NCBI GenBank assembly: GCA_017546265.1
Contig: JAFYXG010000011.1
Location: 221 to 64,220, forward strand
From: Alphaproteobacteria bacterium
Lineage (GTDB): Bacteria > Pseudomonadota > Alphaproteobacteria > Rs-D84
Direction of reading: 5' to 3'
Length of the DNA: 64,000 bases
Below, one piece after another: positions 14,334 through 32,111 of the stretch; position 1 is the first letter of the stretch; every line of letters begins with the position of its first letter. The position numbers were made by a program, and so were the translations under genes. The notes beneath the pieces are model-generated. The model had not been told where the DNA came from. It worked only from the letters and a program-made list of their open reading frames with translations, and made no database searches.

Positions 14334-14882
14334 TCAGAAACTGTAATTTACTCCCATTCCCAGAAAGTTAAATCCATGATTAAGTTCTGTAAAGTCGCCA
14401 TTTGAAAAGTGTATTGTGAACAGTTCTGCCCGTGTTTTATCAGTTATGTTTTTTCCGATAAATACTCGTTCTCCGAATGCCAGTCGGCTTTCCACATATC
14501 TGTCACCACTGTCCCGCATATATGGTCCGATTCCCAGTCCTGCGTACCAGCCGCATTTTGAAAACAGGACGATATCCCATGCGATACCAATCGCACCGAA
14601 CGAAGTACCTTGTTCACTGTTGTATGCAGTGTTTTGCAGTGCATGAATATTAACGCGTGCGGGCAGTCTAAGTATTTCAATGGGTTGGCTGTATTGAAAC
14701 ATCGCCAATGTTGAAGGAGTTAAATCCCAGTCCCATGGCCACAGCAGATGTCCCAGGTCGCCGTGTCCTGTGCTTTGTGCGACCAGTAAGCCTATACTAT
14801 TTTGTGTGTTTTCTGCAAACATTGGATTTGCATGTACGTTTGTGCTCAGCATCACGGCGAAACAAAAATAAATTTTTTTCAT
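14334..14882 (-). CDS. PagL-like lipid A deacylase / acyloxyacyl hydrolase outer-membrane protein
   Basis: ORF trimmed to ATG 14882 (MKKIYFCFAVMLSTNVHA signal peptide). C-terminal HFSNG His/Ser motif and terminal aromatic residues YSF, typical of small OM beta-barrels. Confidence 0.65.
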   Translation of the reverse strand: MKKIYFCFAVMLSTNVHANPMFAENTQNSIGLLVAQSTGHGDLGHLLWPWDWDLTPSTLAMFQYSQPIEILRLPARVNIHALQNTAYNSEQGTSFGAIGIAWDIVLFSKCGWYAGLGIGPYMRDSGDRYVESRLAFGERVFIGKNITDKTRAELFTIHFSNGDFTELNHGFNFLGMGVNYSF

Positions 14883-15077
14883 ATGTAAAATTATATTCAG
14901 AAAAATCATATGTTCTACTGGACAGAATTCATAAAAATGCCGCAGATAACTGTGTATTAGTTGTTTACACAGTAAAAAAAAATTGTTATAATCAAAGAAG
15001 ATGAACACACTAACTGTGTGTTGCTATGCGTACAAAGGTTGGATTTCTGGGGACGCCCAGAATACAGGGAGAGCTTA

Positions 15078-17219
15078 ATGAAAAGTCAAAAGATTGCAGA
15101 TTCCGTCAAGAATGCAGTGGGTACGGTATTTTTACTGGCCGGGGCATTTTTTGTATGTTCTACATTATTGTCAATGCGTTCTGTTTTTGCAGATCCGATT
15201 GCACCGGTTGATTTGAATATGTTGCAGGGTGGTCAAAATGGTCGTTCAAATGCAGCCGGGCGTGCGGCGGGGCGTGCCAGTCCGCGTTCCACATCTGCAA
15301 ATCGTGCCACGGTTGCACGTACAACGGTTGCGGGTCAGAATAATGTTGGTGCGACATCGCGTGCGACAACTGGACAAAATCGTGCTGTCAGATCGCGTGC
15401 GGCGACATCACGATCAGATGCAGCGGCGGGTCGTGTGAATCAGTCTCGTAATGTTGTGTCACGTCAAAATGCGGTAACAACCCGTGCCAATGCGACTGCA
15501 AGTCGTACGGTTCGTGCCCGCACGGCAACTACGGATGCTGCCAGTAATGCTCGCGTTTCGTTACAGGGTGGTGCAATTCGCGGTTCAAAAACAACGAACA
15601 GCACATCTTATTCCTATTTGTCGGGCAAATTGTACACTGGCAACTATTCAAACATCATAGATACGACCACGGGTCTGATTTCTGCGGACGCGTTCAGTAA
15701 CTGTATGGAATCATATTACACTTGTATGGACGAAATTTGTACTGCACGTAATGCGGCCCAACGCCGTTGTGCATGTGCTGGTCGGGTCAAGGCCTTTGCC
15801 GAGGCTGAAGCCGCCCTGGAAACTGCGAACGAAGAACTGATTAAGGTGTCGGGTGAATTGGCATTGTTGATTGCGAACAAGGGCAAAGACGTATCCGAAG
15901 CGTTCAAATTGACCGATGCGGAAAAGGTTATGAACTGTGTTTCATGGCGTGATGCCAGCAAGAATGGCACCGCGACCGAGGATGAATTTGGTGCCTGGTG
16001 TGCAGAACATGGCATATATGATGGTACATGCAATCGCACAACAGCCCCATCATATTGCAAAACGTCTGGAAACGATTTTGGCTTTGATGTAAGTAATTTG
16101 GACGGCAGTGGTTCCGACATTTTGGCGTCCCTGCAGGCCTGGGCCGATGCCAAGGAACAGACATTAACAATCATCACAGATGATGCAGACAGCCTGACAT
16201 CTGCGTTTGATAATTTATCCAGTGTGGTCAGTGGGATGGCTGGTGTTGGTGGTGCATTGGCAGCATCGGATAACCTGACAGATTCATTGGCGGAAACATG
16301 GGGGTATGAATTGTTTGAATACGCACACAACAATGTTTGTGCCCGCGTATTGGATTCTTGCTTTAACGGCATATTCGAGGCTTGTGGTACCCCGCCATCT
16401 GGCACCAAGTGCAGCAATGGTGCAGCCCAGTGTCCATATAATTACAACAGTCATATAACAGTAAACAATACTGGCACCTATGAATTAAACTTTGTCAAGG
16501 CGTCCAGTGGTTACAGTGCGTCAAATTCTGCGACATGTTTTGGTTATACGACTGCATCGGGTGATCCGTATTCAAATCTGCGTGGTCCTGTTGCTGATGC
16601 ACGCCGCAGTGTTATGCAGAAATATGCATTGGATGCGAACGCAGACTGTGATGCGTACGGTGAACAATTGCGTACATCGGCCCAGAACATCGGCTATCAA
16701 AAGGTTGCTGCCCAACAGGCTTTGCAGCAGAAACGCTTGGAATTCGCTCGTGAAGAGGCGGATTCGATTCTGACGGCGGCGGTTTCAGCCGGTACAAACT
16801 TTAACGAATGTATCAGTGAACTCTATGACTGTTATGAAACCCAGTTGTCATCTAATCCGTCATGGCCAGACGCGCGCATTCGCACATATTGTTCCCAGAT
16901 TGCAAACGTACCACATTGTTACGAGGAAATGATATGTAATCCATCAACGGCCCAGTTCCGTGCCGTTATTGACAAAGCGGACAGCACAACCTGTGTGAAT
17001 ACTCAGGATTACACAACAAACACATGCCGCAACATTGTGACATTGAATGAAATTCTGAATGGTACAGGTGCCGAAGCGGCAGAACCGGTCTATGACGAAA
17101 AGGCTTCGGAATCTAAGCAGGGTACACATAATTCGGCGGCATATCGTGAACATTGCTTACAAGAAGCAGGTGTTGACGAAATCCGCAACTGGTTCGAGAA
17201 CAATCGGGTCAAGAATTAA
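15078..17219 (+). CDS. secreted Cys-rich protein, paralog 1 (713 aa), function unknown
   Basis: ORF trimmed to ATG 15078 (AGGGAGAG RBS). Hydrophobic N-terminal signal/anchor, an R/S/T/A/N low-complexity region of about 130 aa, then a Cys-rich domain. Shares the C-x6-C-M-D-x2-C-x9-C-x-C motif with 17303-19558. Confidence 0.8.
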   Translation: MKSQKIADSVKNAVGTVFLLAGAFFVCSTLLSMRSVFADPIAPVDLNMLQGGQNGRSNAAGRAAGRASPRSTSANRATVARTTVAGQNNVGATSRATTGQNRAVRSRAATSRSDAAAGRVNQSRNVVSRQNAVTTRANATASRTVRARTATTDAASNARVSLQGGAIRGSKTTNSTSYSYLSGKLYTGNYSNIIDTTTGLISADAFSNCMESYYTCMDEICTARNAAQRRCACAGRVKAFAEAEAALETANEELIKVSGELALLIANKGKDVSEAFKLTDAEKVMNCVSWRDASKNGTATEDEFGAWCAEHGIYDGTCNRTTAPSYCKTSGNDFGFDVSNLDGSGSDILASLQAWADAKEQTLTIITDDADSLTSAFDNLSSVVSGMAGVGGALAASDNLTDSLAETWGYELFEYAHNNVCARVLDSCFNGIFEACGTPPSGTKCSNGAAQCPYNYNSHITVNNTGTYELNFVKASSGYSASNSATCFGYTTASGDPYSNLRGPVADARRSVMQKYALDANADCDAYGEQLRTSAQNIGYQKVAAQQALQQKRLEFAREEADSILTAAVSAGTNFNECISELYDCYETQLSSNPSWPDARIRTYCSQIANVPHCYEEMICNPSTAQFRAVIDKADSTTCVNTQDYTTNTCRNIVTLNEILNGTGAEAAEPVYDEKASESKQGTHNSAAYREHCLQEAGVDEIRNWFENNRVKN

Positions 17220-17223
17220 AACC

Positions 17224-17249
17224 AAATCCCCCAATTGGGGGATTTTTTT
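17224..17249 (+). terminator. Rho-independent terminator
   Basis: AAATCCCCC-AATT-GGGGGATTT hairpin followed by a T run. Confidence 0.7.
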
Positions 17250-17302
17250 ATGAAAACGTTTTTATTCAATAAAAAAATATGATATAATCACAGGTAAAGA
17301 TA

Positions 17303-19558
17303 ATGAGAAAATTATTAACCTGTTTTGTATCGTTAATGGTTGCCGCACCCGCCGTTGCGGCTGATGTTGTTGCATCGCGTGCATTACCGACCGCGGCGAC
17401 AACATCTGCCACGGTTGAAAAAACGGTTGAAAAAACGGTTGAAAAATCTGATGTTGCCCGCACGGTATCCCGCACGGCGGTATCGCGTTCTGTGCCGACC
17501 GTAAATACCATTGCACAATCCGAACATGGTGGAACAGATACTACACCAGTGGTGCGTTCTGCGGTTTCACGTGTATTTACTGGTGTTTCATCTGGTGCAC
17601 CAACAAAGTCTGAATCATCATCACGTGCCGGTGCGATTTCCCGTGCGGTCAGTGCGGCAAATAATTCTGATACATCCGCCCGTGGAAATTTGGATGCGGC
17701 TGTAAACACGGTTGGTCGCAATTCTCGCGTTTCCGCGGCCAGTATTAACAGTAATCCTGCTGTACGGCGTGCGGGGTTGGTTTTACGTCCTTCCACTGCC
17801 GAGGTTGGCGGACGTGCCACCATTGGTGATTCAGATGTTCAAACGGGGTCAAATATGGATGAGGCGGTTCGTAAAATAACATCACGTTCCGCGACCGAGG
17901 CTACACGTGAATCGATTGCCGATGCAACGGGTCGCCTGGAACAGACGGCTGCACTTAATAAATCATGCCAACAGCAGTATAATGACTGTATGGATCAGTT
18001 TTGTGCGGTATTGGATGCGAATCAAAAGCGTTGTTCCTGTTCGTCTAATTTATCGCGTTATACACGTGTAGAATCCGCCGTCAAAGATGCCAACACCCAA
18101 TTGAACGAGGTTGCTCAACGCATCCGCTATGTTGGTCTGTCTGCGGATGAAATCCGTGCCATTATGAACGAGACCGAAGCAGAACAAGCCCTAAGTGGTG
18201 CGGTTGACACATCGACCAATCGCAATATGCTGGACGCCATCGAAGACCTGATACGCGACCCTGTATCCAATACTTCCTATTCTGCGGATACGTACAGTTC
18301 ATTGGATTTGGACCTGGATTTTTCATCAGATGCCACAGACCTGTTTAACCTGGACCTGTTCAATCTGGGCAATAACGGCAGTTTTTCTAACCTGCGTGGT
18401 GCGGACCTGTACAATGCGGCCAAACGCCGTTGCAACACCATTTTGAACAGGTGCAAAGATGCGGGTGCCACCGCCCAACAGATAACAGGCAATTATGACC
18501 TGGCCATTGACAAAGACTGTGCGGCATACGAACAGGGGCTGACCAAGATGAATGAAACCCTGGTGTCCAACGTTCGCAGTGCTAATTTAATGTTGCAAAA
18601 GGCACGCCTGGCTGTATTGCAGAACAAAAACCAATACGATGCCAAGGGGTGTGTGGCGGCACTGGAAAATTGTATGAAGGACGACATGGTCTGTGGTGAC
18701 GATTACTTTAAATGCGTTGACCCGACCAAGGCATACATAGACGAAAATGGCGAAGTTATATTGGGGAAAAATATTTCGAACATTACCGCATTTATGGACA
18801 GTTATAATAATGCAGCAATTAACGATGATTATCTGGATGCAATCTACAAAGGTCAATCTATTACAGAGGAAAATTGCGAGGCAGATTCATCTATCAGTGT
18901 TTCTGGTCAGGCTGCCAAGGCGGGCGGAAAAGATGGTTCTTGTATGGTGAAATATTTGTTGCAAAAAATTGGTACCGGGCAAAAAGTTACAGACGAAGGT
19001 CTTTGCCGTGCCGTTTTGGATAAGTGCCAGCGTTATACATATAACGATTCCAAATATGATCCATATAATGACATTGTTGTAAATTATATCCAGCGTGCTA
19101 TGGTAAACATCCGTGCGGCCCAGTATAATATTATATCGGACTATGCATCGACCTGTATGGTTGACATTGCCAATTGCTATAACCAACAGGTGACCCAGGT
19201 AAACTCTTGGTCATCAAATGCCAGTGTGTCCAGTATTTATAACGTAATGCGTGGTGCGTGCCGCAACGTTGCATTAACCTGTGCCTATGCGGTATTTAAC
19301 AAAGCTGCAGACAACGATCTTTGTTCCGATGATGATGATTGTATAAACGATATATCCAACATGTTCTATCAGTCATTATTGTGCCCAGACAACTCGACAT
19401 ACCAGGCCAGCAACTGTACTGATACGGGTAATGGCAAAACATGTGTAAACGAACGTTGCAAATGCAATACCGGGTACGAGGCATGGGGAACTGCGTGTTT
19501 ATTAAAGTGTGCAAGTGGTGAAGTACGTAATTCGTACGGTACATGCCAAAATGAATAA
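17303..19558 (+). CDS. secreted Cys-rich protein, paralog 2 (751 aa), function unknown
   Basis: Signal peptide MRKLLTCFVSLMVAAPAVAA, VEKT repeats, an R/S/V/A low-complexity region, the conserved Cys motif, and an EGF-like C-terminal signature. Extended -10 TGATATAAT at 17280-17288. Confidence 0.8.
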   Translation: MRKLLTCFVSLMVAAPAVAADVVASRALPTAATTSATVEKTVEKTVEKSDVARTVSRTAVSRSVPTVNTIAQSEHGGTDTTPVVRSAVSRVFTGVSSGAPTKSESSSRAGAISRAVSAANNSDTSARGNLDAAVNTVGRNSRVSAASINSNPAVRRAGLVLRPSTAEVGGRATIGDSDVQTGSNMDEAVRKITSRSATEATRESIADATGRLEQTAALNKSCQQQYNDCMDQFCAVLDANQKRCSCSSNLSRYTRVESAVKDANTQLNEVAQRIRYVGLSADEIRAIMNETEAEQALSGAVDTSTNRNMLDAIEDLIRDPVSNTSYSADTYSSLDLDLDFSSDATDLFNLDLFNLGNNGSFSNLRGADLYNAAKRRCNTILNRCKDAGATAQQITGNYDLAIDKDCAAYEQGLTKMNETLVSNVRSANLMLQKARLAVLQNKNQYDAKGCVAALENCMKDDMVCGDDYFKCVDPTKAYIDENGEVILGKNISNITAFMDSYNNAAINDDYLDAIYKGQSITEENCEADSSISVSGQAAKAGGKDGSCMVKYLLQKIGTGQKVTDEGLCRAVLDKCQRYTYNDSKYDPYNDIVVNYIQRAMVNIRAAQYNIISDYASTCMVDIANCYNQQVTQVNSWSSNASVSSIYNVMRGACRNVALTCAYAVFNKAADNDLCSDDDDCINDISNMFYQSLLCPDNSTYQASNCTDTGNGKTCVNERCKCNTGYEAWGTACLLKCASGEVRNSYGTCQNE
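17411..17446 (+). repeat. 3 perfect tandem copies of a 12-nt unit (ACGGTTGAAAAA) inside the CDS
   Basis: Encodes (T)VEK x3 and is in frame. A second near-perfect 2 x 15-nt repeat (DLFNL DLFNL) lies at 18338-18367. Confidence 0.9.
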
Positions 19559-19581
19559 AATCCCCAAAATGGGGATTTTTT
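19557..19581. terminator. bidirectional terminator
   Basis: AAAATCCCC / GGGGATTTT hairpin between convergent genes. Confidence 0.65.
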
Positions 19582-22425: not shown

Positions 22426-23712
22426 TTATTTTGAACCGATAATTTTTGCCCACGATTTTGCGGTGGCTTGTGTTTTCTTCCACAATGTTTTTATATCAGA
22501 TTTTAATGTTTCGCCCATTTTGGTGTCGATGCTGCCGCCCAGTTCGGTTGCGAATTTTATTGCATTTTTCGCCAGGTACATCGTTATCGCCACCACCAGG
22601 ATTGTGACAAAGAATCCTGGGCTGTCGAATTCGGGCAGCCCGTTTGCATTACCAAAGTCCACAATTCCACCCAACAGTGCTGCACAGATTGCGATTACAA
22701 CGCTTAAAACGATAAAATGTAGTGCTGCGTTAATAAACCGTGATATCTGCGATTGCAGAGATTCTGCCTTAAATATTCCCATGAACCCATTGAATATGTC
22801 GCCTGCGATTCCTTTGTATGATGTTTTGCCTATTGTTTCCGCCAGTGCCGTAAATGGCAGCATAATAATCCCCAGGAACAGATCAGCAATCACACCGAAC
22901 GCAATAAAAGCGAACCGCCAACTAAGCATTATAAAGCATATAATCAACGTTACTCCACATGCAAATCCAAAGACACTGTTCCCAATTGACAGTCCAATCC
23001 ATTTCCACCCCAGTGCCACCGCCGTATAGCAAAATCCTGCTAACCGTGTAGGTACACACATAATATCTGCGGCATGTTCCGGGTTTATCAGATTTTCTGG
23101 TGAAATATGATTTGCGGCATATTCGCGAATTGCCCCGCACGTATCGGGCAGGTTTATTCCAGCAGTTTGTGTAATTGCGTTCAATATGGCATCAGAAATT
23201 GCTGTTCCAATCAGCAGGATTGGTGACATAACCATCATAAATGTCTTGGCGGGGCCAATCATCAGCACACCTGTCCACAGTGCGACCATTACACCCTTTT
23301 TAACGATTTCTTTTATTTTATCTTCGGGTTTACTTTTTCCGATAATAATTGTGTACGCTTCGAATCCAATCCAGAAAGCATACGCAATAATGATAAACAG
23401 AATCACGAACCGCACCAGCGAAGTATCCAACACATGTGCAACAAACGAAAACGCATTCATGAATGCCAGTCCGATTTTTGCTTCGACCGGGACAAAGTCA
23501 GGAACGATTTGTTGTTGTTCTGTAAAATAGTTTACGTCTCCGGCCATTTTTTCAACAAATCGTTTATGGTTGTTTTCTGTTGCCCATGTTCCGAATTCGC
23601 CTACATCCGCCATTGGCAGATTAGATTCCGTGGCAAAGGCAGGTGCAATCAAACATATTGCCAAAATTGCAACCAGAATTTTCGATAAAAATTTCTTTAA
23701 CTGCCCTATCAT
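22426..23712 (-). CDS. polytopic membrane protein, VirB6/TrbL-like paralog (4th in operon, 428 aa; family assignment tentative)
   Basis: Signal peptide, a hydrophobic N-terminal helix pair, a hydrophilic loop of about 100 aa, a cluster of TM helices and a Lys-rich tail with LW (KTLWKK). Its start overlaps the upstream stop by 4 nt. Confidence 0.7.
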   Translation of the reverse strand: MIGQLKKFLSKILVAILAICLIAPAFATESNLPMADVGEFGTWATENNHKRFVEKMAGDVNYFTEQQQIVPDFVPVEAKIGLAFMNAFSFVAHVLDTSLVRFVILFIIIAYAFWIGFEAYTIIIGKSKPEDKIKEIVKKGVMVALWTGVLMIGPAKTFMMVMSPILLIGTAISDAILNAITQTAGINLPDTCGAIREYAANHISPENLINPEHAADIMCVPTRLAGFCYTAVALGWKWIGLSIGNSVFGFACGVTLIICFIMLSWRFAFIAFGVIADLFLGIIMLPFTALAETIGKTSYKGIAGDIFNGFMGIFKAESLQSQISRFINAALHFIVLSVVIAICAALLGGIVDFGNANGLPEFDSPGFFVTILVVAITMYLAKNAIKFATELGGSIDTKMGETLKSDIKTLWKKTQATAKSWAKIIGSK

Positions 23713-25196
23713 TTCTTTTCCATAGCCTTGGTAATTTTTTCAGTGATTTGTACAGGCAGGTGCCATATTTTTTGTCCCAGGTCATGCACCCATGCACCAA
23801 AGTCAAATTGTTCACCGGTTCCGACATTTGCACCTTCGCCCGGGATTGGTAATTTGATTGTCCCGGCTGGTAACAGTTTATCTATTTTTGGGCTGATTGC
23901 GTAATAGTACAACATGAACAAACATGCCATCATCAGCATAAAGTCCCACCCATCTTTCATAAAGTCAAATGCACCTGGGTATTGTCTTTCTACTTCTGCT
24001 TTGCGTGCGGTAAAACATTGTTTGAATATGTCTTTGTTCATTTGACCGTCTGCCAACGCGACCTGTTCGCACGTTGCAAACACATTCATAACGGACAGCG
24101 TTTGTGCGTCTGGGTTTTGTACGGTCTGTCCCATCATTGGGGGCAAGATTGCACTGTATCCATCATTTGGTCCGGGCATAAATGTATCTGCGGTATATGA
24201 TACGGTTGCATATATGATAATAACCTTTAATGTAATTGCGACAATTCTGACAGCGGACGATATCAGCATACCGATAGCCTTGCTGACCAGTCCGCTGGCC
24301 TTTGCCCAGATACTTTCAAATGCGGTTGCCGCCAACAGCAGTGGCAGAAATATAATCAGGAAAACCAACTTAAATACAACGGACAGGATTTGAAAGAACA
24401 AATCAAAACCGATAATAAGGAACATTATCACCAACGCCAATCCGGCCACCCATGTTAATGCACCGCCTCCCATATCCATCCATGCAAAATTCATCATTGC
24501 AAATCCGCCTGCGGCCCCGGCCAGCATAACACTGTTGATATTTCCCATAACGCACATAAATGGTTTCATAATAGGGTTTAAAATATCTTCTGTGTTTGTT
24601 TCGCCAATTGCCCCCAGTGCATCACATTGTGCTGCGTCCCCAACGCCAGTTGCCATCATGGACAGTTCTGCCCCCGTGTACAGTACGGGCGTAATAGTTA
24701 TCTGGGAAACGGTTTTCAGTGCGGTTGTTCCTCCCATACCCAATGCTCCCATCAGGATTCCGACAACAAATATTCTGGTTGCGGGTTTCCACAATTTTTC
24801 CAGCCACGGTTTAAATTCTATTTTATGTTCCTTTGGGTCCAGTGTTGCAGTTTTTTTTGCGTGTTCAAAGAAGTATTGTATGGTGTGGATCAGGATAAAT
24901 ACACCAAATCCAATAATCATCAGTATCCACAAATTATTGACCATCAGCCCCCAGAATTTTTCCGTTGCCCCCCCAATTACCCCGAACAGGTCTGCGACAT
25001 ACCGGCACAGGAAACACCCGTTAGCGGATGCGATGTTACCATTTTCCACCCCAACTGCGGTCAGAAAGTTATTCATGCTGGTATATGTTATTGCTCCTCC
25101 GCCAATAGATGCGGAAATATACCAAATACCGATACCCAATGCGGCCAGAATCATAATAACACGAACGGCGATTAAAATCAGTTTTGCCTTTAACAT
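23709..25196 (-). CDS. polytopic membrane protein, VirB6/TrbL-like paralog (3rd in operon, 495 aa; tentative)
   Basis: N-terminal block NGCFLCRYVADLFGVIGG, a TM cluster and a Lys-rich tail. Its start overlaps the upstream stop by 1 nt. Confidence 0.7.
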   Translation of the reverse strand: MLKAKLILIAVRVIMILAALGIGIWYISASIGGGAITYTSMNNFLTAVGVENGNIASANGCFLCRYVADLFGVIGGATEKFWGLMVNNLWILMIIGFGVFILIHTIQYFFEHAKKTATLDPKEHKIEFKPWLEKLWKPATRIFVVGILMGALGMGGTTALKTVSQITITPVLYTGAELSMMATGVGDAAQCDALGAIGETNTEDILNPIMKPFMCVMGNINSVMLAGAAGGFAMMNFAWMDMGGGALTWVAGLALVIMFLIIGFDLFFQILSVVFKLVFLIIFLPLLLAATAFESIWAKASGLVSKAIGMLISSAVRIVAITLKVIIIYATVSYTADTFMPGPNDGYSAILPPMMGQTVQNPDAQTLSVMNVFATCEQVALADGQMNKDIFKQCFTARKAEVERQYPGAFDFMKDGWDFMLMMACLFMLYYYAISPKIDKLLPAGTIKLPIPGEGANVGTGEQFDFGAWVHDLGQKIWHLPVQITEKITKAMEKK

Positions 25197-26386
25197 TATT
25201 TACCGTCCTTTTTATCGCCACCTGAAATAATTGTTTTTCCCACTTTGACTGCTGCATCGAACGCATCCTTGGCCAAGGTTAAAACATCATTCGCCAATTG
25301 TTCACCCATATCCTTTTTCTCGGCAACATCAAACGCGGCCAGGAACATTTTAGAAATCTGAGGTATTTGTCCCTGGATAAAGTTCAAAACATATACCAGA
25401 ACAATTGCACTCATCAGTGTCATTGACTGCAAGTTTTCTGTGTTTAAATCACCTTCGAATATTTGACCAGTGGTTATAGCGGTCATTAAATCTGCGGCCG
25501 ATGCATCTGGTGCGGAAAAGAACTTTGCGATGATTACCATGATAATGGTATAAGTCAGAACGACCGACCCCAGTGTTACAATTGCGGTAATCGGGTTTTT
25601 AAATTGGTTCACACCAACACCGGATCCCAGTTTTCCAATCCAGGCGGGTACGTGTTCTGCCCCCTTAAATGCGAATGCAACCAGCGATATCGGAAAGAAG
25701 AACGCAAAGAAAGCCATCGCCACAATTGCATCCAGGAAATAGCAACAATATCTGAAAAATAACTTAAAGAAACCCCATGCCAGATACAAACCAATCATAA
25801 ACAAAATAATATGTTTAATCAGTGTTCCAACTCCCAGCAGTGCACGCCATGAAAATGCCTTGTCCATCATTGCGATGCCCAGTTCTATATATGCCTGGAA
25901 TTGAGTGATGGTTGTCTTCATCAACAATATAATTTTATCACGCAGTTCTGGTCTGTAGAAACCGTCATCGCTCATTTCTTCTGGTTGGTATGTGACTTTT
26001 TCTTCGACCGCGTCTGTATCCATTTTTGTAATGGCCTGGGTGTATGTCAGTGTTATTTGTGCTACGGGCTCGAATGTAACAGTTGTTATAACGCGTGGCA
26101 ACATAACACCCATACCCATCAGCGCGATTGCAATAATTCCGTTTATAAAGACTTTTTGTATAGATTTTTCATACAGTGTATCTGCAAAGTTATTTTGAAA
26201 GTTTTTCCAAATTGCATTTACCATAAATACAGCGAACAGAAACACAAACAGTATTACGCATATTTGGCTGAAGTATCCGTAAATGTTTGCCGCCGCCATA
26301 GACACGATTTGAAACAGTCTGTCAAACACCCCACAGCCCCAACACTGCACAGTATTTTCCACCAAAGATGATGTCCACTGGTTCAT
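25196..26386 (-). CDS. polytopic membrane protein, VirB6/TrbL-like paralog (2nd in operon, 396 aa; tentative)
   Basis: N-terminal block CWGCGVFDRLFQIVSMAA, a TM cluster and a Lys-rich tail. ATGA overlap with the upstream gene. Confidence 0.7.
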   Translation of the reverse strand: MNQWTSSLVENTVQCWGCGVFDRLFQIVSMAAANIYGYFSQICVILFVFLFAVFMVNAIWKNFQNNFADTLYEKSIQKVFINGIIAIALMGMGVMLPRVITTVTFEPVAQITLTYTQAITKMDTDAVEEKVTYQPEEMSDDGFYRPELRDKIILLMKTTITQFQAYIELGIAMMDKAFSWRALLGVGTLIKHIILFMIGLYLAWGFFKLFFRYCCYFLDAIVAMAFFAFFFPISLVAFAFKGAEHVPAWIGKLGSGVGVNQFKNPITAIVTLGSVVLTYTIIMVIIAKFFSAPDASAADLMTAITTGQIFEGDLNTENLQSMTLMSAIVLVYVLNFIQGQIPQISKMFLAAFDVAEKKDMGEQLANDVLTLAKDAFDAAVKVGKTIISGGDKKDGK

Positions 26387-27651
26387 TTCTTTTTAATCCA
26401 TCCTGCGGCGGAGCCAATGGCACTGCCTGTTTTTTTAATACTTCCCCAGATTGTACCGGCATCGGCCTTAACACTTTTATACAGTCCGTCCATACCGCCA
26501 CCAATGTATTTGTTCAACTGTTGCTGGGTTTTATCGTATATTTTGAACATTAAATAGAAAGTCAATATTGCGGACATCCATGTGACAGAATGTTGTCCAA
26601 ATCCCGAGGCAGAATTTGCGATTGTTGGAATATTGCTGGCGGCACTCCCCCCTGCGGCAACAACGAACACTGACGAATTCCAGTTAAACAATGCACGTAT
26701 CACGGCCAGATTTATACACAGCATAAATGCACACGCAATCATTGTCACGACCAGTTGTTGCAGTGCCTTGGTAATGCCACTGAATGCGGGCCAAACATCA
26801 AACCATTTATCGCTGGATTTCACAACGTATGTCATTACATGGAATGGATACAGTATCAACTGCATGCCAAAGTTAAATATTCCCTGAATAATCAGCAGTG
26901 CCATAAACAAATTGCTGGCCACAAATGTAAAGATAAGCAGTATTCCCGTAATAATATTTAAAAAGTTTTCACCCCCATGCGGAATCAACGTCATCAGTCC
27001 CTTTAGTCCCTGTGTCAGTTGTGCGAAACCGTACTTTACAATTTGGTTGTTTGCGTTTGATAAATCGGACACCGGCTGGACCAGGAATTCGCACGATTCC
27101 TGTGAAATCCAATCGTGTTGCAAAATGTCAGCGGGGCATTCGACTTGTTTTATATTCTGTGGGTCTTGTATGATTTGTTCGGTGATAATTCCAGTATAAA
27201 TTGACCCCAGTTCCAGAAACGGATTTACCAACCACTGTGTTAAAAATACAGGCTTCATCTGTAATAAAAATACTGCGGCGATAATTGCACGTGTTCCAGA
27301 CTTTAATGTGTTTTCTATGATTTGATAACCTGTAATTTTACCTTCTGCAATTTCGCCGCCTCCTGATATTCCCAAAAAAGACAACCATGTTTTTGGAAAA
27401 TACATTTTAACCAGTGTGATGGTAATAGTGATACCCAAAAATATCCAAACAAAAGCATAGATAAAACCATCGCCATTTCCGACAAAAAAATCATACATAC
27501 TTGTAGCGACCAGCATCATCGCGTCCAGTACCATTGGTACAAACGGTGCCAGGTTTAACGAATCTATGATATTACCTGCGTACGCGGCACCTGGCATGAC
27601 AAACATCACACCCAAAAAAAGCCCGAAAATCAGTTTTTTCAGCAGGTACAT
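26383..27651 (-). CDS. polytopic membrane protein, VirB6/TrbL-like paralog (1st in operon, 422 aa; tentative)
   Basis: Signal peptide MYLLKKLIFGLFLGVMFVMPGAAYA and the same architecture as the others. Tail GTIWGSIKK...WIKKK. Confidence 0.7.
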   Translation of the reverse strand: MYLLKKLIFGLFLGVMFVMPGAAYAGNIIDSLNLAPFVPMVLDAMMLVATSMYDFFVGNGDGFIYAFVWIFLGITITITLVKMYFPKTWLSFLGISGGGEIAEGKITGYQIIENTLKSGTRAIIAAVFLLQMKPVFLTQWLVNPFLELGSIYTGIITEQIIQDPQNIKQVECPADILQHDWISQESCEFLVQPVSDLSNANNQIVKYGFAQLTQGLKGLMTLIPHGGENFLNIITGILLIFTFVASNLFMALLIIQGIFNFGMQLILYPFHVMTYVVKSSDKWFDVWPAFSGITKALQQLVVTMIACAFMLCINLAVIRALFNWNSSVFVVAAGGSAASNIPTIANSASGFGQHSVTWMSAILTFYLMFKIYDKTQQQLNKYIGGGMDGLYKSVKADAGTIWGSIKKTGSAIGSAAGWIKKK

Positions 27652-27680
27652 TCTCTGTATATTTATTTTATGTTTTCAAT

Positions 27681-27710
27681 TATATCACATTTTGTGCAAA
27701 ATATGATATA
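27681..27710. promoter_or_regulatory. 30-bp quasi-palindrome made of two overlapping divergent extended -10 promoters
   Basis: TATATCACATTTTG-TG-CAAAATATGATATA, with one mismatch between the arms. The top strand carries TGATATACT (27704-27712). The bottom strand carries TGATATAAT (reverse complement of 27680-27688). Confidence 0.5.
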
Positions 27711-27720
27711 CTTAAAAGCA

Positions 27721-29010
27721 ATGAACAGATTAAAAAAATTTTGGATAGTCTTTTTATCGTTCTTACCCTGGGCGGCAGGTGCGGGTGTTCCATTACTGAT
27801 TGGTGGTGTTGCGGGTATTGGTGCATTGGCAGGTTTTTCAATATACCGCACGGCTGTGCCTGTATCGCCAACGGATGCGTATCAGTTTTTTTCCAGTTGT
27901 TGGACCTGTCAAATGTTTTCAGACATTATGGCGACCATGTCTGGGATATTGCCTCGAATTTATCATGCACTGGGGGAAACGATTGTTCCATTTACAATTA
28001 TGCTGACCGCCATATGGTGGACATGGAAAATAGTTGGCGGTCTGTTTAATGGCAAAGTAGATGCCCCCTGGACATTGGCCAGTACATTTGTAAATCACCT
28101 CAGTCGTTTGGCGATTGTTTGTGTTTTTTTATTGGCACCATTACCTCGTTTAATATCAGATATTGCGATTTCTCCTATTTTTAACATAGGTTTATCGTTG
28201 AACCGTGCGGTTGTTCATGATGATGGTTTTGATACGTGTGTTATATCAACGGCACTGGCCGACCCGACATCGGTCGATTCGGTTGCGGCGGATTCTGGTG
28301 CGTTTTCACCTACGTTGCGTCATAACCTGGCATGTGAATTGTCTGGTGTGCACCAGATGACGGGTATGGGCATGACGGTTGGGTGGACTATGTTGAACAT
28401 GGCATTTAATGCAGACTATATGCACAAAATATTATGGGATGTTCCGATTTTTCCGAACGTTATTTTATTTTTTGCTGGGTTGCTGGTTTTAGTTTTGTTT
28501 TTTTCGGCATTATTACCAATACCTATATATTTTCTGGAAATATTTATAACATTGGCACTGGATATGGTGATGTTGCCATTTATGTTGTTGGCCTGGTTGT
28601 TCAAAGACTGGAAAATATCTTTGTCTGGGGCTGGCAAAACGATTCGAAGTATTGTGGACGATGTGATAAATGGGACATTGGGTTTGGCGATGACTGGGAT
28701 ATTTGTATCGTTTGCGATAATGTTTCTGGATGCAGTGTTCGGTGATTGGAATGGTGTATCTGCCTTATCGGTTGCATTGACGCAAAACGATTCGAAATTT
28801 TTGATGGATGCCTTGATGATGCGTAATGACGGGCTGATAATGATAATATTTATGGGTATCTTTTTGACTATGTTCATGATAATGATACCTGCACTGGCCA
28901 AGACTTTATTCAACGTTCAGATTTCAACAGACTTCTATGACACCACGAAAAAGAACATAGATATTGTATGGCAAAACCTGAAAAAGTGGTACTCAGCGAT
29001 AAAAAAATAA
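27721..29010 (+). CDS. polytopic membrane protein, VirB6/TrbL-like paralog (divergent, 429 aa; tentative)
   Basis: ORF 27670-29010 trimmed to ATG 27721 (MNRLKKFWIVFLSF). Block SSCWTCQMFSDIMATMSG, a TM cluster and the tail DIVWQNLKKWYSAIKK. Confidence 0.7.
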   Translation: MNRLKKFWIVFLSFLPWAAGAGVPLLIGGVAGIGALAGFSIYRTAVPVSPTDAYQFFSSCWTCQMFSDIMATMSGILPRIYHALGETIVPFTIMLTAIWWTWKIVGGLFNGKVDAPWTLASTFVNHLSRLAIVCVFLLAPLPRLISDIAISPIFNIGLSLNRAVVHDDGFDTCVISTALADPTSVDSVAADSGAFSPTLRHNLACELSGVHQMTGMGMTVGWTMLNMAFNADYMHKILWDVPIFPNVILFFAGLLVLVLFFSALLPIPIYFLEIFITLALDMVMLPFMLLAWLFKDWKISLSGAGKTIRSIVDDVINGTLGLAMTGIFVSFAIMFLDAVFGDWNGVSALSVALTQNDSKFLMDALMMRNDGLIMIIFMGIFLTMFMIMIPALAKTLFNVQISTDFYDTTKKNIDIVWQNLKKWYSAIKK

Positions 29011-30734: not shown

Positions 30735-32111
30735 ATGCGTCATTTATCATTAAGTATATTGGCTGTACTGCTGATAATTCCTGGTGTTGCGAGTGCTCGC
30801 ATGCCTGTGGTGAACATTTCATCTGGCAGTGTGTCTGCACGTTCTGCGTTTGGCGAAGGTGAAACGTTGTCTCAGAAACGCGATGTTGCAACTGTTCCGG
30901 TCCAGAAATCGGCCCCGACACGTACTCGTTCGGTTGTTGCTCGTTCTGTGTCAAAACAGGTGTCTGCACCTGCGGGGCGTTCTGTTGATATTGGTGAAAC
31001 ATTGGCTGCGACTGATGTGTTGGTTCCGCATCGTCCCAGTGGTGATTTGTGGGCGAAAAGTGATAACATCTTGCGTATGCCAATGGCCAGCGAGTTTTCT
31101 GTTATTCGTTCCGATAGTATTTTACCCGAAGAAAGTTTGGATAATGCATTTTCGGCTGTGTCTACCCCTGTGGCGGAAACGGTTCGTGTTGCGTCCAGTG
31201 TGCCACAAAAAACCGATGTTTCCGATACGGTTTCGGATTTAGATAATCAGATTGCACGTTTGGTTGAAATGCAAAAACGTATTGCGGATAGTGAACGCAA
31301 TGTTTCATCGCGTGTAATTGCTGCACCAATTGCCACGATGGATACTGCCCCTGTGGCGGAGCCTGTTCGCGTTGCATCAAATCGTGTTGCGGAACGGCCA
31401 GCAGCCCCGGTGGTTGAGCATAATAATGAACCAGATGTGCCAGTTGTTGCAAATAATGATTTTTCATTGCGGCGTATGGTTGTGCCTATGTCGGACGATG
31501 TTGTTGTTCGCAGTGTGGAAAAGAATACGTCTCCACGTATTGCGGCGGTGCGGGATGATATGACAAAAATGAGTCCGTCTGAACTTCGCCGTGCGTTTCG
31601 CAAAACCTTTTTGTCTGAAAATAAGCATCTTTCTACATATTCTGTTGATGATCGTTTTGATGTTGCCAGTGATATGTCTGCGTCCATCGAAGGGTTTACA
31701 TCTGCCCGGGATTTGTCCGAGCAGGGTGGTATTCGTCCGTTGGAAATCAAGATAAAGTTCCACAACGAAGATTCTGCACTATCGCGTGAGAATTATAATT
31801 TATTGACCGAATATGCAGGCATAGTGGTCAGCAAACCAACGCGCGCAATTCAGGTGGCGATACCCCAGCATATGACCACCAGCAAAGACGGTCGTAAATT
31901 GGCGGCTCGCCGTTTGGCGATTGTGGAACAGGCACTGACGGACAATGGTGTATCCCAGCAGCGAATTGTTCCTGTATTGTCTAACCGGGAAGAGCAGGGC
32001 TTTGTTCTGCGTATTATTTCTGGGGATCAGTATGAAACTCTGACCCAACAGCAGCATGATATATTTGGTGATACGATAAATAAAAAGACCTATAAAAGCA
32101 TGTCATGGTAG
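30735..32111 (+). CDS. secreted protein with low-complexity/repeat N-region and OmpA/MotB-like C-terminal domain (tentative)
   Basis: ORF trimmed to ATG 30735 (MRHLSLSILAVLLIIPGVASA). Repeat PVAE.VRVAS occurs twice. C-terminus ...LAARRLAIVEQALTDNGVSQQRI... is OmpA_C-like. Confidence 0.65.
   Translation: MRHLSLSILAVLLIIPGVASARMPVVNISSGSVSARSAFGEGETLSQKRDVATVPVQKSAPTRTRSVVARSVSKQVSAPAGRSVDIGETLAATDVLVPHRPSGDLWAKSDNILRMPMASEFSVIRSDSILPEESLDNAFSAVSTPVAETVRVASSVPQKTDVSDTVSDLDNQIARLVEMQKRIADSERNVSSRVIAAPIATMDTAPVAEPVRVASNRVAERPAAPVVEHNNEPDVPVVANNDFSLRRMVVPMSDDVVVRSVEKNTSPRIAAVRDDMTKMSPSELRRAFRKTFLSENKHLSTYSVDDRFDVASDMSASIEGFTSARDLSEQGGIRPLEIKIKFHNEDSALSRENYNLLTEYAGIVVSKPTRAIQVAIPQHMTTSKDGRKLAARRLAIVEQALTDNGVSQQRIVPVLSNREEQGFVLRIISGDQYETLTQQQHDIFGDTINKKTYKSMSW

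Follow-up and report, generated by a model that had tools for sequence, protein, structure and literature searches.

A multigene family of putatively exported, cysteine-rich helical proteins confined to the alphaproteobacterial order Rs-D84

The window analysed here, a 64,000-nucleotide stretch of contig JAFYXG010000011.1 (assembly GCA_017546265.1; a genome of 958 kb in 21 contigs, 80% complete), comes from a member of the alphaproteobacterial order Rs-D84. The question that it raises concerns two adjacent genes, P0001 and P0002, whose products are large, rich in cysteine and without a match to any known family: what are these proteins, and what could they be for? Members of Rs-D84 (Candidatus Enterousia) are widespread in ruminant, bird and human guts, and have genomes below 1 Mb, no respiration and few transporters. 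An earlier note, made from the letters of the window, had described the pair as tandem paralogous secreted proteins of 713 and 751 amino acids (aa), each combining a signal sequence, a low-complexity region and a cysteine-rich domain. It was found that both belong to a family of 12 paralogs in their own genome, and that this family is confined to the order Rs-D84. The interpretation favoured here, tentatively and with somewhat less than even confidence, is that the proteins are exported through Sec as elongated helical rods stapled by disulfides, tethered by a basic tail and ending in variable distal tips, and that they are components of the envelope or surface of these bacteria. Both open reading frames were present at the positions previously assigned to them, and their parts were delimited as follows (window coordinates; pLDDT, predicted local distance difference test).

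15078-17219, + strand: P0001, 713 aa from ATG, with an N-terminal hydrophobic helix; family member
15078-15206, + strand: P0001 residues 1-43, conserved hydrophobic helix ending VFADPIAP; signal peptide or uncleaved signal anchor
15207-15608, + strand: P0001 residues 44-177, basic R/S/T/A/N-rich disordered tail (21 R, 4 D+E, net charge +19; pLDDT about 30)
15609-17216, + strand: P0001 acidic, Cys-rich, mostly helical domain (24 Cys, net charge -32)
15702-15776, + strand: P0001 signature C-x6-C-M-D-x2-C-x9-C-x-C, C209 to C233
17303-19558, + strand: P0002, 751 aa, with a classical signal peptide, MRKLLTCFVSLMVAAPAVA, followed by AD; family member
17363-17902, + strand: P0002 residues 21-200, tail (net charge +6; pLDDT below 50 over most of it)
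17903-19297, + strand: P0002 residues 201-665, helical core, predicted to be Cys-stapled (18 Cys invariant across the subfamily)
17966-18040, + strand: P0002 signature C-x6-C-M-D-x2-C-x9-C-x-C, C222 to C246
19298-19555, + strand: P0002 variable C-terminal Cys-knot tip (predicted short beta strands, residues 698-750 in the AlphaFold2 model)

Both proteins share one layout, in which a hydrophobic N-terminus is followed by a low-complexity stretch of 130-180 residues (R, S, T, A, N and V) and then by 520-545 residues that contain the cysteines; 24 of these in P0001 and 30 in P0002 were counted downstream of the N-terminal hydrophobic segment, in keeping with the many-cysteine domain first described. 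The signature was exact in both proteins, its previously reported coordinates starting at the first cysteine, and chance was excluded; in P0001 its residues are C209-x6-C216-M-D-x2-C221-x9-C231-x-C233. A coiled coil had been noted directly after it, and in the structural models a helix stands there in each protein (residues 237-266 in P0001, 247-277 in P0002). The low-complexity tails were likewise real, being basic in net charge and modelled with AlphaFold pLDDT below 50. Among orthologs, the P0001 tail was 46% identical with 63 inserted columns, while the P0002 tail comprised a variable part (residues 21-124, with a threefold TVEK repeat and xVSRx units; 26% identity) and a conserved block (residues 125-200, AVNTVGRNxRVS...VRRAGLxLRPSTAEVGGRA; 75% identity). 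The TVEK-TVEK-TVEK sequence corresponds to a perfect 12-nt repeat present three times in tandem at 17411-17446 of the window, where the closest orthologs differ.

The claim of two signal sequences stood for P0002, which has an ordinary cleavable signal peptide, 59% identical among orthologs; P0001 begins instead with a conserved 43-residue helix that may stay uncleaved. The latter was 84% identical among orthologs, with 20 invariant positions, and was modelled as a helix at residues 3-35. Since its conservation is far above that of the P0002 signal peptide, this segment probably has a function beyond targeting, as an uncleaved membrane anchor. Both proteins are therefore predicted to combine export, a Cys-rich domain and a disordered basic region, and envelope tethering or surface display, as proposed before, would be a reasonable reading of that combination.

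A search of the source genome with a profile of the shared module identified 12 open reading frames of 346-1490 aa, spread over five contigs. The signature was exact in all 12, and it was present in 143 of 150 among the representatives listed from public data. The number of cysteines between the motif and the C-terminus was even in every paralog (24, 30, 74, 18, 44, 32, 42, 28, 36, 8, 36 and 38), a result that has a probability of 1 in 4096 under random parity; counts were also even in 110 of 133 complete-looking public representatives. Such parity suggests intramolecular bonds, rather than intermolecular cross-links. Furthermore, 78 of 398 gaps between consecutive cysteines were of the form C-x6-C, compared with 14.6 in residue shuffles (a 5-fold excess), and the share of this spacing among public representatives was also 19%; at this spacing, a pair of cysteines would share one helix face, separated by two turns.

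The family was equally consistent in its charge. The Cys domain was acidic in all 12 paralogs (net -23 to -49 in the 11 full-size members, -6 in the short one of 331 aa), and the tail had a net charge of +6 to +21 in 10 of them, being nearly absent from two. When 2252 six-frame open reading frames of at least 100 aa were screened by composition, a basic R/S/T/A-rich window was found in 10, all of them family members; because all 10 of these basic, low-complexity frames carry the motif, the basic tail is distinctive of the family, and exported proteins of this organism do not share it in general. The family can be defined by an export segment, the motif, an acidic helical domain rich in C-x6-C and an even cysteine count; the motif, the acidic domain and the even count held in all 12 paralogs, while a clear export segment was absent from the paralog on contig C20.

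Pairwise BLAST aligned P0001 and P0002 over just 53 residues around the motif (E = 1e-8), and an initial profile comparison with close orthologs covered 92 columns (96.5% probability). With diverse alignments of 45 and 54 sequences, hhalign returned a probability of 99.6% (E = 1.6e-23) over about 240 columns, matching residues 192-563 of P0001 to 204-445 of P0002. Two further conserved blocks fell within this region, namely WGYELFEYAHNNVCxRVLDSC against RGxDLYNAAKxRCxxxLxxC, and YALDANADCDAYGEQL...QQKRLEF against YDLAIDKDCAAYEQGL...LQKARLAV. The two proteins are thus true paralogs, although old and remote ones, and the earlier description of them as paralogous holds by profile-profile comparison.

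Searches for known families returned nothing, in line with the earlier note, in which no family was recognised. Neither P0001 nor P0002 matched Pfam (E ≤ 1) or NCBIfam, and the other 10 paralogs contained no credible Pfam domain (E ≤ 0.1) and had no NCBIfam match. Profile searches of PDB sequences with both proteins were empty. Foldseek comparison of both models with the PDB gave a best E-value of 0.4 and TM-scores of 0.1 or less, to generic coiled coils and spectrin repeats only, and comparison of P0002 with the viral models of BFVD gave nothing meaningful. The P0002 model, built from the 54-sequence alignment with AlphaFold2, had a mean pLDDT of 71, with residues 370-751 at 85-97, a confident core at about 90 and the tail below 50; it consisted of long helices (e.g., 391-440 and 590-633), followed by short beta hairpins at 698-750. 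The P0001 model (45 sequences) had a mean pLDDT of 63, with residues 500-660 at 83-93 and the tail again below 50, and its main feature was a helix of about 90 residues (502-592). On the strength of these models, the helical cores represent a fold absent from the libraries searched and a candidate new fold. An epidermal growth factor-like (EGF) domain was considered for the C-terminus of P0002, where C-x-C-x2-G-Y can be seen by eye; there was no EGF match in Pfam at E ≤ 1, and Foldseek produced only a furin repeat at E = 9.3.

Orthologs of each window protein formed more than 1000 clusters at 90% identity, all annotated as hypothetical and all from uncultured Alphaproteobacteria. Among species-representative genomes, 256 were found by scanning to encode relatives of P0001; the titles of such relatives named Candidatus Enterousia sp., Ca. 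Enterousia avistercoris, Ca. Enterousia excrementavium and 'uncultured Rickettsiales', and their sources were the guts of sheep, goat, yak, deer, buffalo, chicken and human. The module profile, run against 1.84 billion representatives, matched 436 clusters defined at 50% identity, always at 100-320 residues from the N-terminus, in proteins of up to 2338 aa. Within its own family, sampled across eight genera with genomes of 0.7-1.1 Mb, the module was present in 91 of 91 genomes at 7-14 copies, typically 11-12. The sister families of the order, when searched with a broader profile of the 12 paralogs, had it in 12 of 13 genomes at 1-8 copies. It was found in none of 199 other alphaproteobacterial genera, and 250 genomes of other Pseudomonadota gave no credible match, the lone hit (E = 3e-4) being a 41-aa frame with an internal stop. 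The family is thus restricted to Rs-D84, with an expansion in the Enterousia family.

Compared with the closest genome, P0001 was 80% and P0002 74% identical, where MraY was 90%, FtsW 88%, MurG 86%, UvrD 82% and PagL 72%. Judged by these values, both evolve as ordinary core genes, and not as antigens under diversifying selection; an overall rate near that of UvrD argues for a structural role over a role in an arms race. Conservation was uneven along the proteins. The helical cores were 76-89% identical among orthologs (78-84% for P0002), while the tails were 26-46% identical, except for the block at residues 125-200 of P0002, and in the C-terminal tips identity was 32-48% and insertions added as many as 356 alignment columns, a maximum reached in the P0002 tip, itself 48% identical.

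The favoured interpretation follows the proteins from export to the exposed end. The N-terminal hydrophobic segment, as read from the sequence, would direct export via Sec, after which P0002 would be released by signal peptidase following AVA, and P0001 would probably stay tethered to the inner membrane by its conserved helix. Cysteines would then pair within each molecule in an oxidising compartment, as the observed parity and spacing suggest, and the C-x6-C pairs would staple adjacent helices together as a rod resistant to proteases; for the oxidation, a membrane-anchored, DsbA-like protein with CGYC at its active site is available. Charge polarity was observed in 10 of the 12 paralogs, P0001 and P0002 among them, and could allow the basic, S/T/A-rich disordered tail to serve as a flexible tether, either to anionic polymers of the envelope (lipopolysaccharide or phospholipid phosphates, for example) or to sister molecules through their acidic domains, with the acidic rod, at net -23 to -49 in the 11 paralogs of full size, projecting away from it. 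The distal tip would be the exposed end, formed by the C-terminal Cys-knot whose indels make it so variable, and it could contact partner cells or host material. In the long paralogs this tip includes beta repeats; a relative encoded in another genome, P0259 (1845 aa), carries Listeria-Bacteroides repeats at its C-terminus (PF09479, Flg_new; E = 4e-15), which neither window protein possesses; this domain is typical of cell-surface proteins, so that P0259 provides a hint of surface location.

The stapling principle has precedents. In twin-CX9C/CX3C CHCH proteins, and in the Sel1-like Cys-rich proteins of Helicobacter, cysteines aligned on one side of a helix form bridges to the helix next to it, and this principle fits the 5-fold excess of C-x6-C; however, the spacing here is x6 rather than x9, x3 or x7, the predicted rods are much larger and multi-helical, and there was no match in sequence or fold. 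Rs-D84 has been described as lacking standard transporters, as predicted to depend on partners, and as having many hypothetical membrane proteins (PMC12306168), and rods of this kind would fit such a partner-dependent lifestyle.

Several points weigh against the stapled-rod interpretation. The binding partner proposed for the tail is purely conjectural. Neither P0001 nor P0002 showed an anchor in the outer membrane, a beta-barrel, a lipobox or any known signal for surface export, and no secretion route was identified for either. The chemistry is also problematic. The only recognisable disulfide oxidoreductase found was the DsbA-like protein (C1:29208-30024 in the source genome, or L021:7200-8024, minus strand; Thioredoxin_4/DSBA, E = 1e-18), which has two N-terminal transmembrane helices and whose gene lies about 1.6 kb away from three clustered paralogs on contig C1. 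Neither DsbB nor VKOR was found in any of 13 genomes of the order, and Rs-D84 has no respiratory chain (PMC12306168); without all three, disulfide formation in an anaerobic gut bacterium, and the re-oxidation of the DsbA-like protein, are unexplained.

A more ambitious form of the same idea, which is improbable as a whole, is that the dozen paralogs are subunits of a single disulfide-stapled apparatus, spanning the envelope or located on the surface and with P0001 as its member anchored in the inner membrane, that the transporter-poor Rs-D84 use to attach to and draw on partner cells. The cysteines of this apparatus, which exceed 400 per genome, would be oxidised by the DsbA-like enzyme with a novel re-oxidation pathway; the pathway would be new because DsbB, VKOR and respiratory quinones are all missing from this anaerobe.

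Among the alternatives, the one that survives best, although it is unlikely, places the proteins in the periplasm as a disulfide-rich scaffold or lattice that stiffens the envelope without surface exposure, after the manner of the chlamydial cysteine-rich outer-membrane complex. The lack of any signal for outer-membrane translocation or secretion would suit such a scaffold, as would the conserved, probable inner-membrane anchor of P0001, the stable copy number and the purifying selection, and the basic tail and acidic domain could drive self-association. However, the even cysteine number of every paralog suggests bonds within molecules, the variable, indel-rich tips and the repeats of P0259 are more typical of exposed proteins, and the presence of peptidoglycan synthesis genes (mraY, ftsW, murG and PBP1A) means that a wall substitute is not obviously needed. 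The comparison with chlamydial OmcB (about 60 kDa) is nevertheless close in several respects: it too is a Sec-exported envelope protein of an obligately host-dependent bacterium with a reduced genome, has about 24 cysteines and a basic N-terminal region followed by a Cys-rich body, and contains no enzymatic domain. By contrast, Chlam_OMP6 and DUF11 were not matched in Pfam by P0001 and P0002 (E ≤ 1) or by the 10 other paralogs (E ≤ 0.1); OmcB is rich in beta structure, with DUF11-type repeats, whereas the window proteins are predominantly helical in the AlphaFold2 models, with predicted C-x6-C staples; and OmcB is a single-copy protein, whereas there are 12 paralogs in the genome here, with even counts that point to intramolecular bonds. 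OmcB may thus be regarded as the closest analogue in logic, although the window proteins fail the tests of sequence and fold for membership of its family. Disulfide-rich proteins of the envelope or surface are already known; those described here would be an instance from an unrelated and undescribed family and fold.

A second alternative, rather improbable, casts the proteins as secreted effectors or pore formers whose targets would be the cells of a partner or host, from which they might, for instance, extract metabolites. A lineage that depends on partners and is without transporters might have use for such factors, the predicted fold is a long helical bundle, and two paralogs on contig C1 have C-terminal hydrophobic segments rich in Gly and Ala. 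Against this, P0001 and P0002 are hydrophobic at the N-terminus only, and so lack the internal hydrophobic segment of ClyA-type toxins; neither the ClyA-type nor any other toxin fold was recovered by Foldseek (best E = 0.4, TM-score ≤ 0.1), no toxin domain was detected in Pfam, and the orthologs are conserved and not polymorphic. The C1 paralogs concerned belong to a group of three without a long basic tail (C1:31331-36019 and C1:57264-60257; loci L015, L017 and L018), and the hydrophobic segments of two of the three resemble glycine zippers. Two adjacent paralogs on this contig terminate in CEDIQM and CEDINM.

It is very unlikely that the basic tail, and not the Cys domain, is the functional end of the molecule, serving adhesion or scavenging by the capture of polyanions outside the cell (DNA, RNA, mucin or other sulfated glycans). 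This region is indeed strongly positive with few acidic residues, the organism is without many biosynthetic pathways, and the basic N-terminal region of chlamydial OmcB binds glycosaminoglycans; but the tail is the least conserved part of the protein (26-46% identity), two paralogs are nearly tail-less, and its position beside the membrane anchor of P0001 suggests a location close to the cell rather than an exposed one.

The remaining alternative concerns type IV secretion and depends on the genomic neighbourhood, which was compared across 12 related loci. Most genomes of the genus, and four other genera, have retained P0001 and P0002 in tandem, and the arrangement was broken in two genomes; within the genus and in one other genus, a longer block was syntenic, comprising P0001, P0002, dnaQ, uvrD and a set of polytopic membrane paralogs. 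Five of the latter occupy 22426-29010 of the window. They had no Pfam match at E ≤ 0.01, TrbL/VirB6 included, and a 'VirB6-like' label for them was consequently dropped. That the window proteins are accessories of a type IV system (a VirB5-like tip, an adhesin or a periplasmic substrate) working with this membrane array would be in keeping with the conserved block, and with the presence of VirB4 in 14 of 16 genomes of the order. This was nonetheless considered doubtful in the extreme: the membrane paralogs are without a Pfam match, two housekeeping genes (dnaQ and uvrD) intervene, the 12 paralogs are scattered over five contigs, VirB4 lies on a separate contig (C5), and there was no match to VirB5 or TraN models. 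Patterns of presence and absence cannot separate the Cys family from type IV secretion, since both are order-wide.

Comparison with individual type IV components pointed the same way. TraN (PF06986) is also a large, exported, Cys-rich proteobacterial envelope protein from genomes with a type IV secretion ATPase, but there was no PF06986 match, the cysteine pattern and fold differ, the neighbours are pagL, dnaQ and uvrD and not a transfer operon, and the window proteins belong to a multigene family. The VirB5/TraC minor pilins are Sec-exported, helical and possibly surface-located; they are, however, three-helix bundles of about 220 aa without a Cys-rich body or basic tail, compared with 713 and 751 aa here, and no Pfam match, no PDB fold match at E < 0.4 and no adjacent VirB4 were found. 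Type IV systems of the Rickettsia type are said to lack VirB5. Two further candidates can be dismissed: a cytoplasmic metal-binding protein was ruled out by the export signals, the even cysteine parity and the acidic helical domain, and a polymorphic toxin by the lack of a toxin domain and the conservation of orthologs at stable copy number.

The family occupies about 3% of the genome and is likely to be central to the lifestyle of Rs-D84, because no member of the lineage lacks it and its copy number is stable, because it evolves about as slowly as UvrD, and because it has no relatives or known fold elsewhere. Its conserved core offers a handle for localisation, cryo-electron tomography and enrichment, for example through antibodies. 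It also poses a biochemical puzzle, in that cysteines would be paired extensively, and with perfect parity, in an anaerobe without DsbB and VKOR.

One specific mechanism of attachment was rejected. Outer-membrane proteins of Alphaproteobacteria are reportedly joined to peptidoglycan through an N-terminal Ala-Asp by L,D-transpeptidases, and AD follows the predicted cleavage site in P0002 and its orthologs; P0001 contains ADP. However, YkuD (PF03734) was absent from the source genome and present in only 4 of 11 relatives, and linkage of this kind was discarded because the enzyme is missing from most genomes.

The signals for expression, and the gene that precedes the pair, were delimited as follows; those for transcription are consensus matches only.

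14334-14882, - strand: PagL-type lipid A 3-O-deacylase, divergent to P0001 (Pfam PF09411, E = 7e-12; intact HFSNG motif); not a family member
14964-14992, + strand: promoter-like site of P0001 (TTTACA, 17 nt, TATAAT, with an upstream TG; 11 of 12 positions match)
15066-15073, + strand: Shine-Dalgarno sequence of P0001, AGGGAGAG
17224-17245, + strand: intergenic hairpin resembling an intrinsic terminator (9-bp stem with 5 GC pairs, then TTTTTTT)
17280-17288, + strand: extended -10-like element TGATATAAT, 15 nt 5' of the P0002 start codon, as read from the sequence
19557-19579, - strand: hairpin between the convergent P0002 and dnaQ (10-bp stem)

Given the terminator-like hairpin between the genes and the TGATATAAT element ahead of P0002, the arrangement suggests that P0001 and P0002 are separate transcription units. 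The frame of P0001 could be extended to a GTG at 15018, 60 nt 5' of the ATG. The hairpin at 19557-19579 was scored as a terminator on the minus strand only, for dnaQ; from its position, beginning 1 nt before the end of the P0002 stop codon, it may serve P0002 also. The PagL-type gene was the most persistent neighbour, adjoining the P0001 ortholog in 8 of the 12 loci, among them one from another genus.

Further along the window, at 30735-32111, lies a gene whose product has a signal peptide, a long region rich in V, S, A, R, D and E, and a C-terminal globular part. The earlier note had called this protein OmpA-like and compared its composition to the tails of P0001 and P0002. Neither proposal could be sustained, in that it matched no OmpA or other Pfam model (E ≤ 0.01), and the region in question is full of D and E and failed the composition screen, which picks out family members only.

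The paralog on contig C20 (C20:14511-18980, minus strand; locus L009) is P0002-like and 1490 aa long, and its open frame begins with neither a recognisable start codon nor a signal peptide; a frameshift, a misassembly or pseudogene status may be the cause. Towards the C-terminus there are about eight Cys-containing repeats of 85-105 aa, which by eye follow a ...GY...LYAxW pattern resembling that of Listeria-Bacteroides repeats and end in LYAxW. Their identity as Listeria-Bacteroides repeats was considered and rejected, with no Pfam match at E ≤ 10 and no BLAST similarity to P0259.

Two observations concern the public records. A P0001 ortholog of 66% identity occurs on a 108-kb contig titled Bacteroides fragilis (L113; CAVGNU010000001.1), a record that is almost certainly a mislabelled or contaminated bin. 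In many related assemblies, the P0001 ortholog lies 6-11 kb from the end of a contig, which suggests that a repeated element, possibly an rRNA operon, stands at a constant distance upstream of P0001 and causes assemblies to break there.

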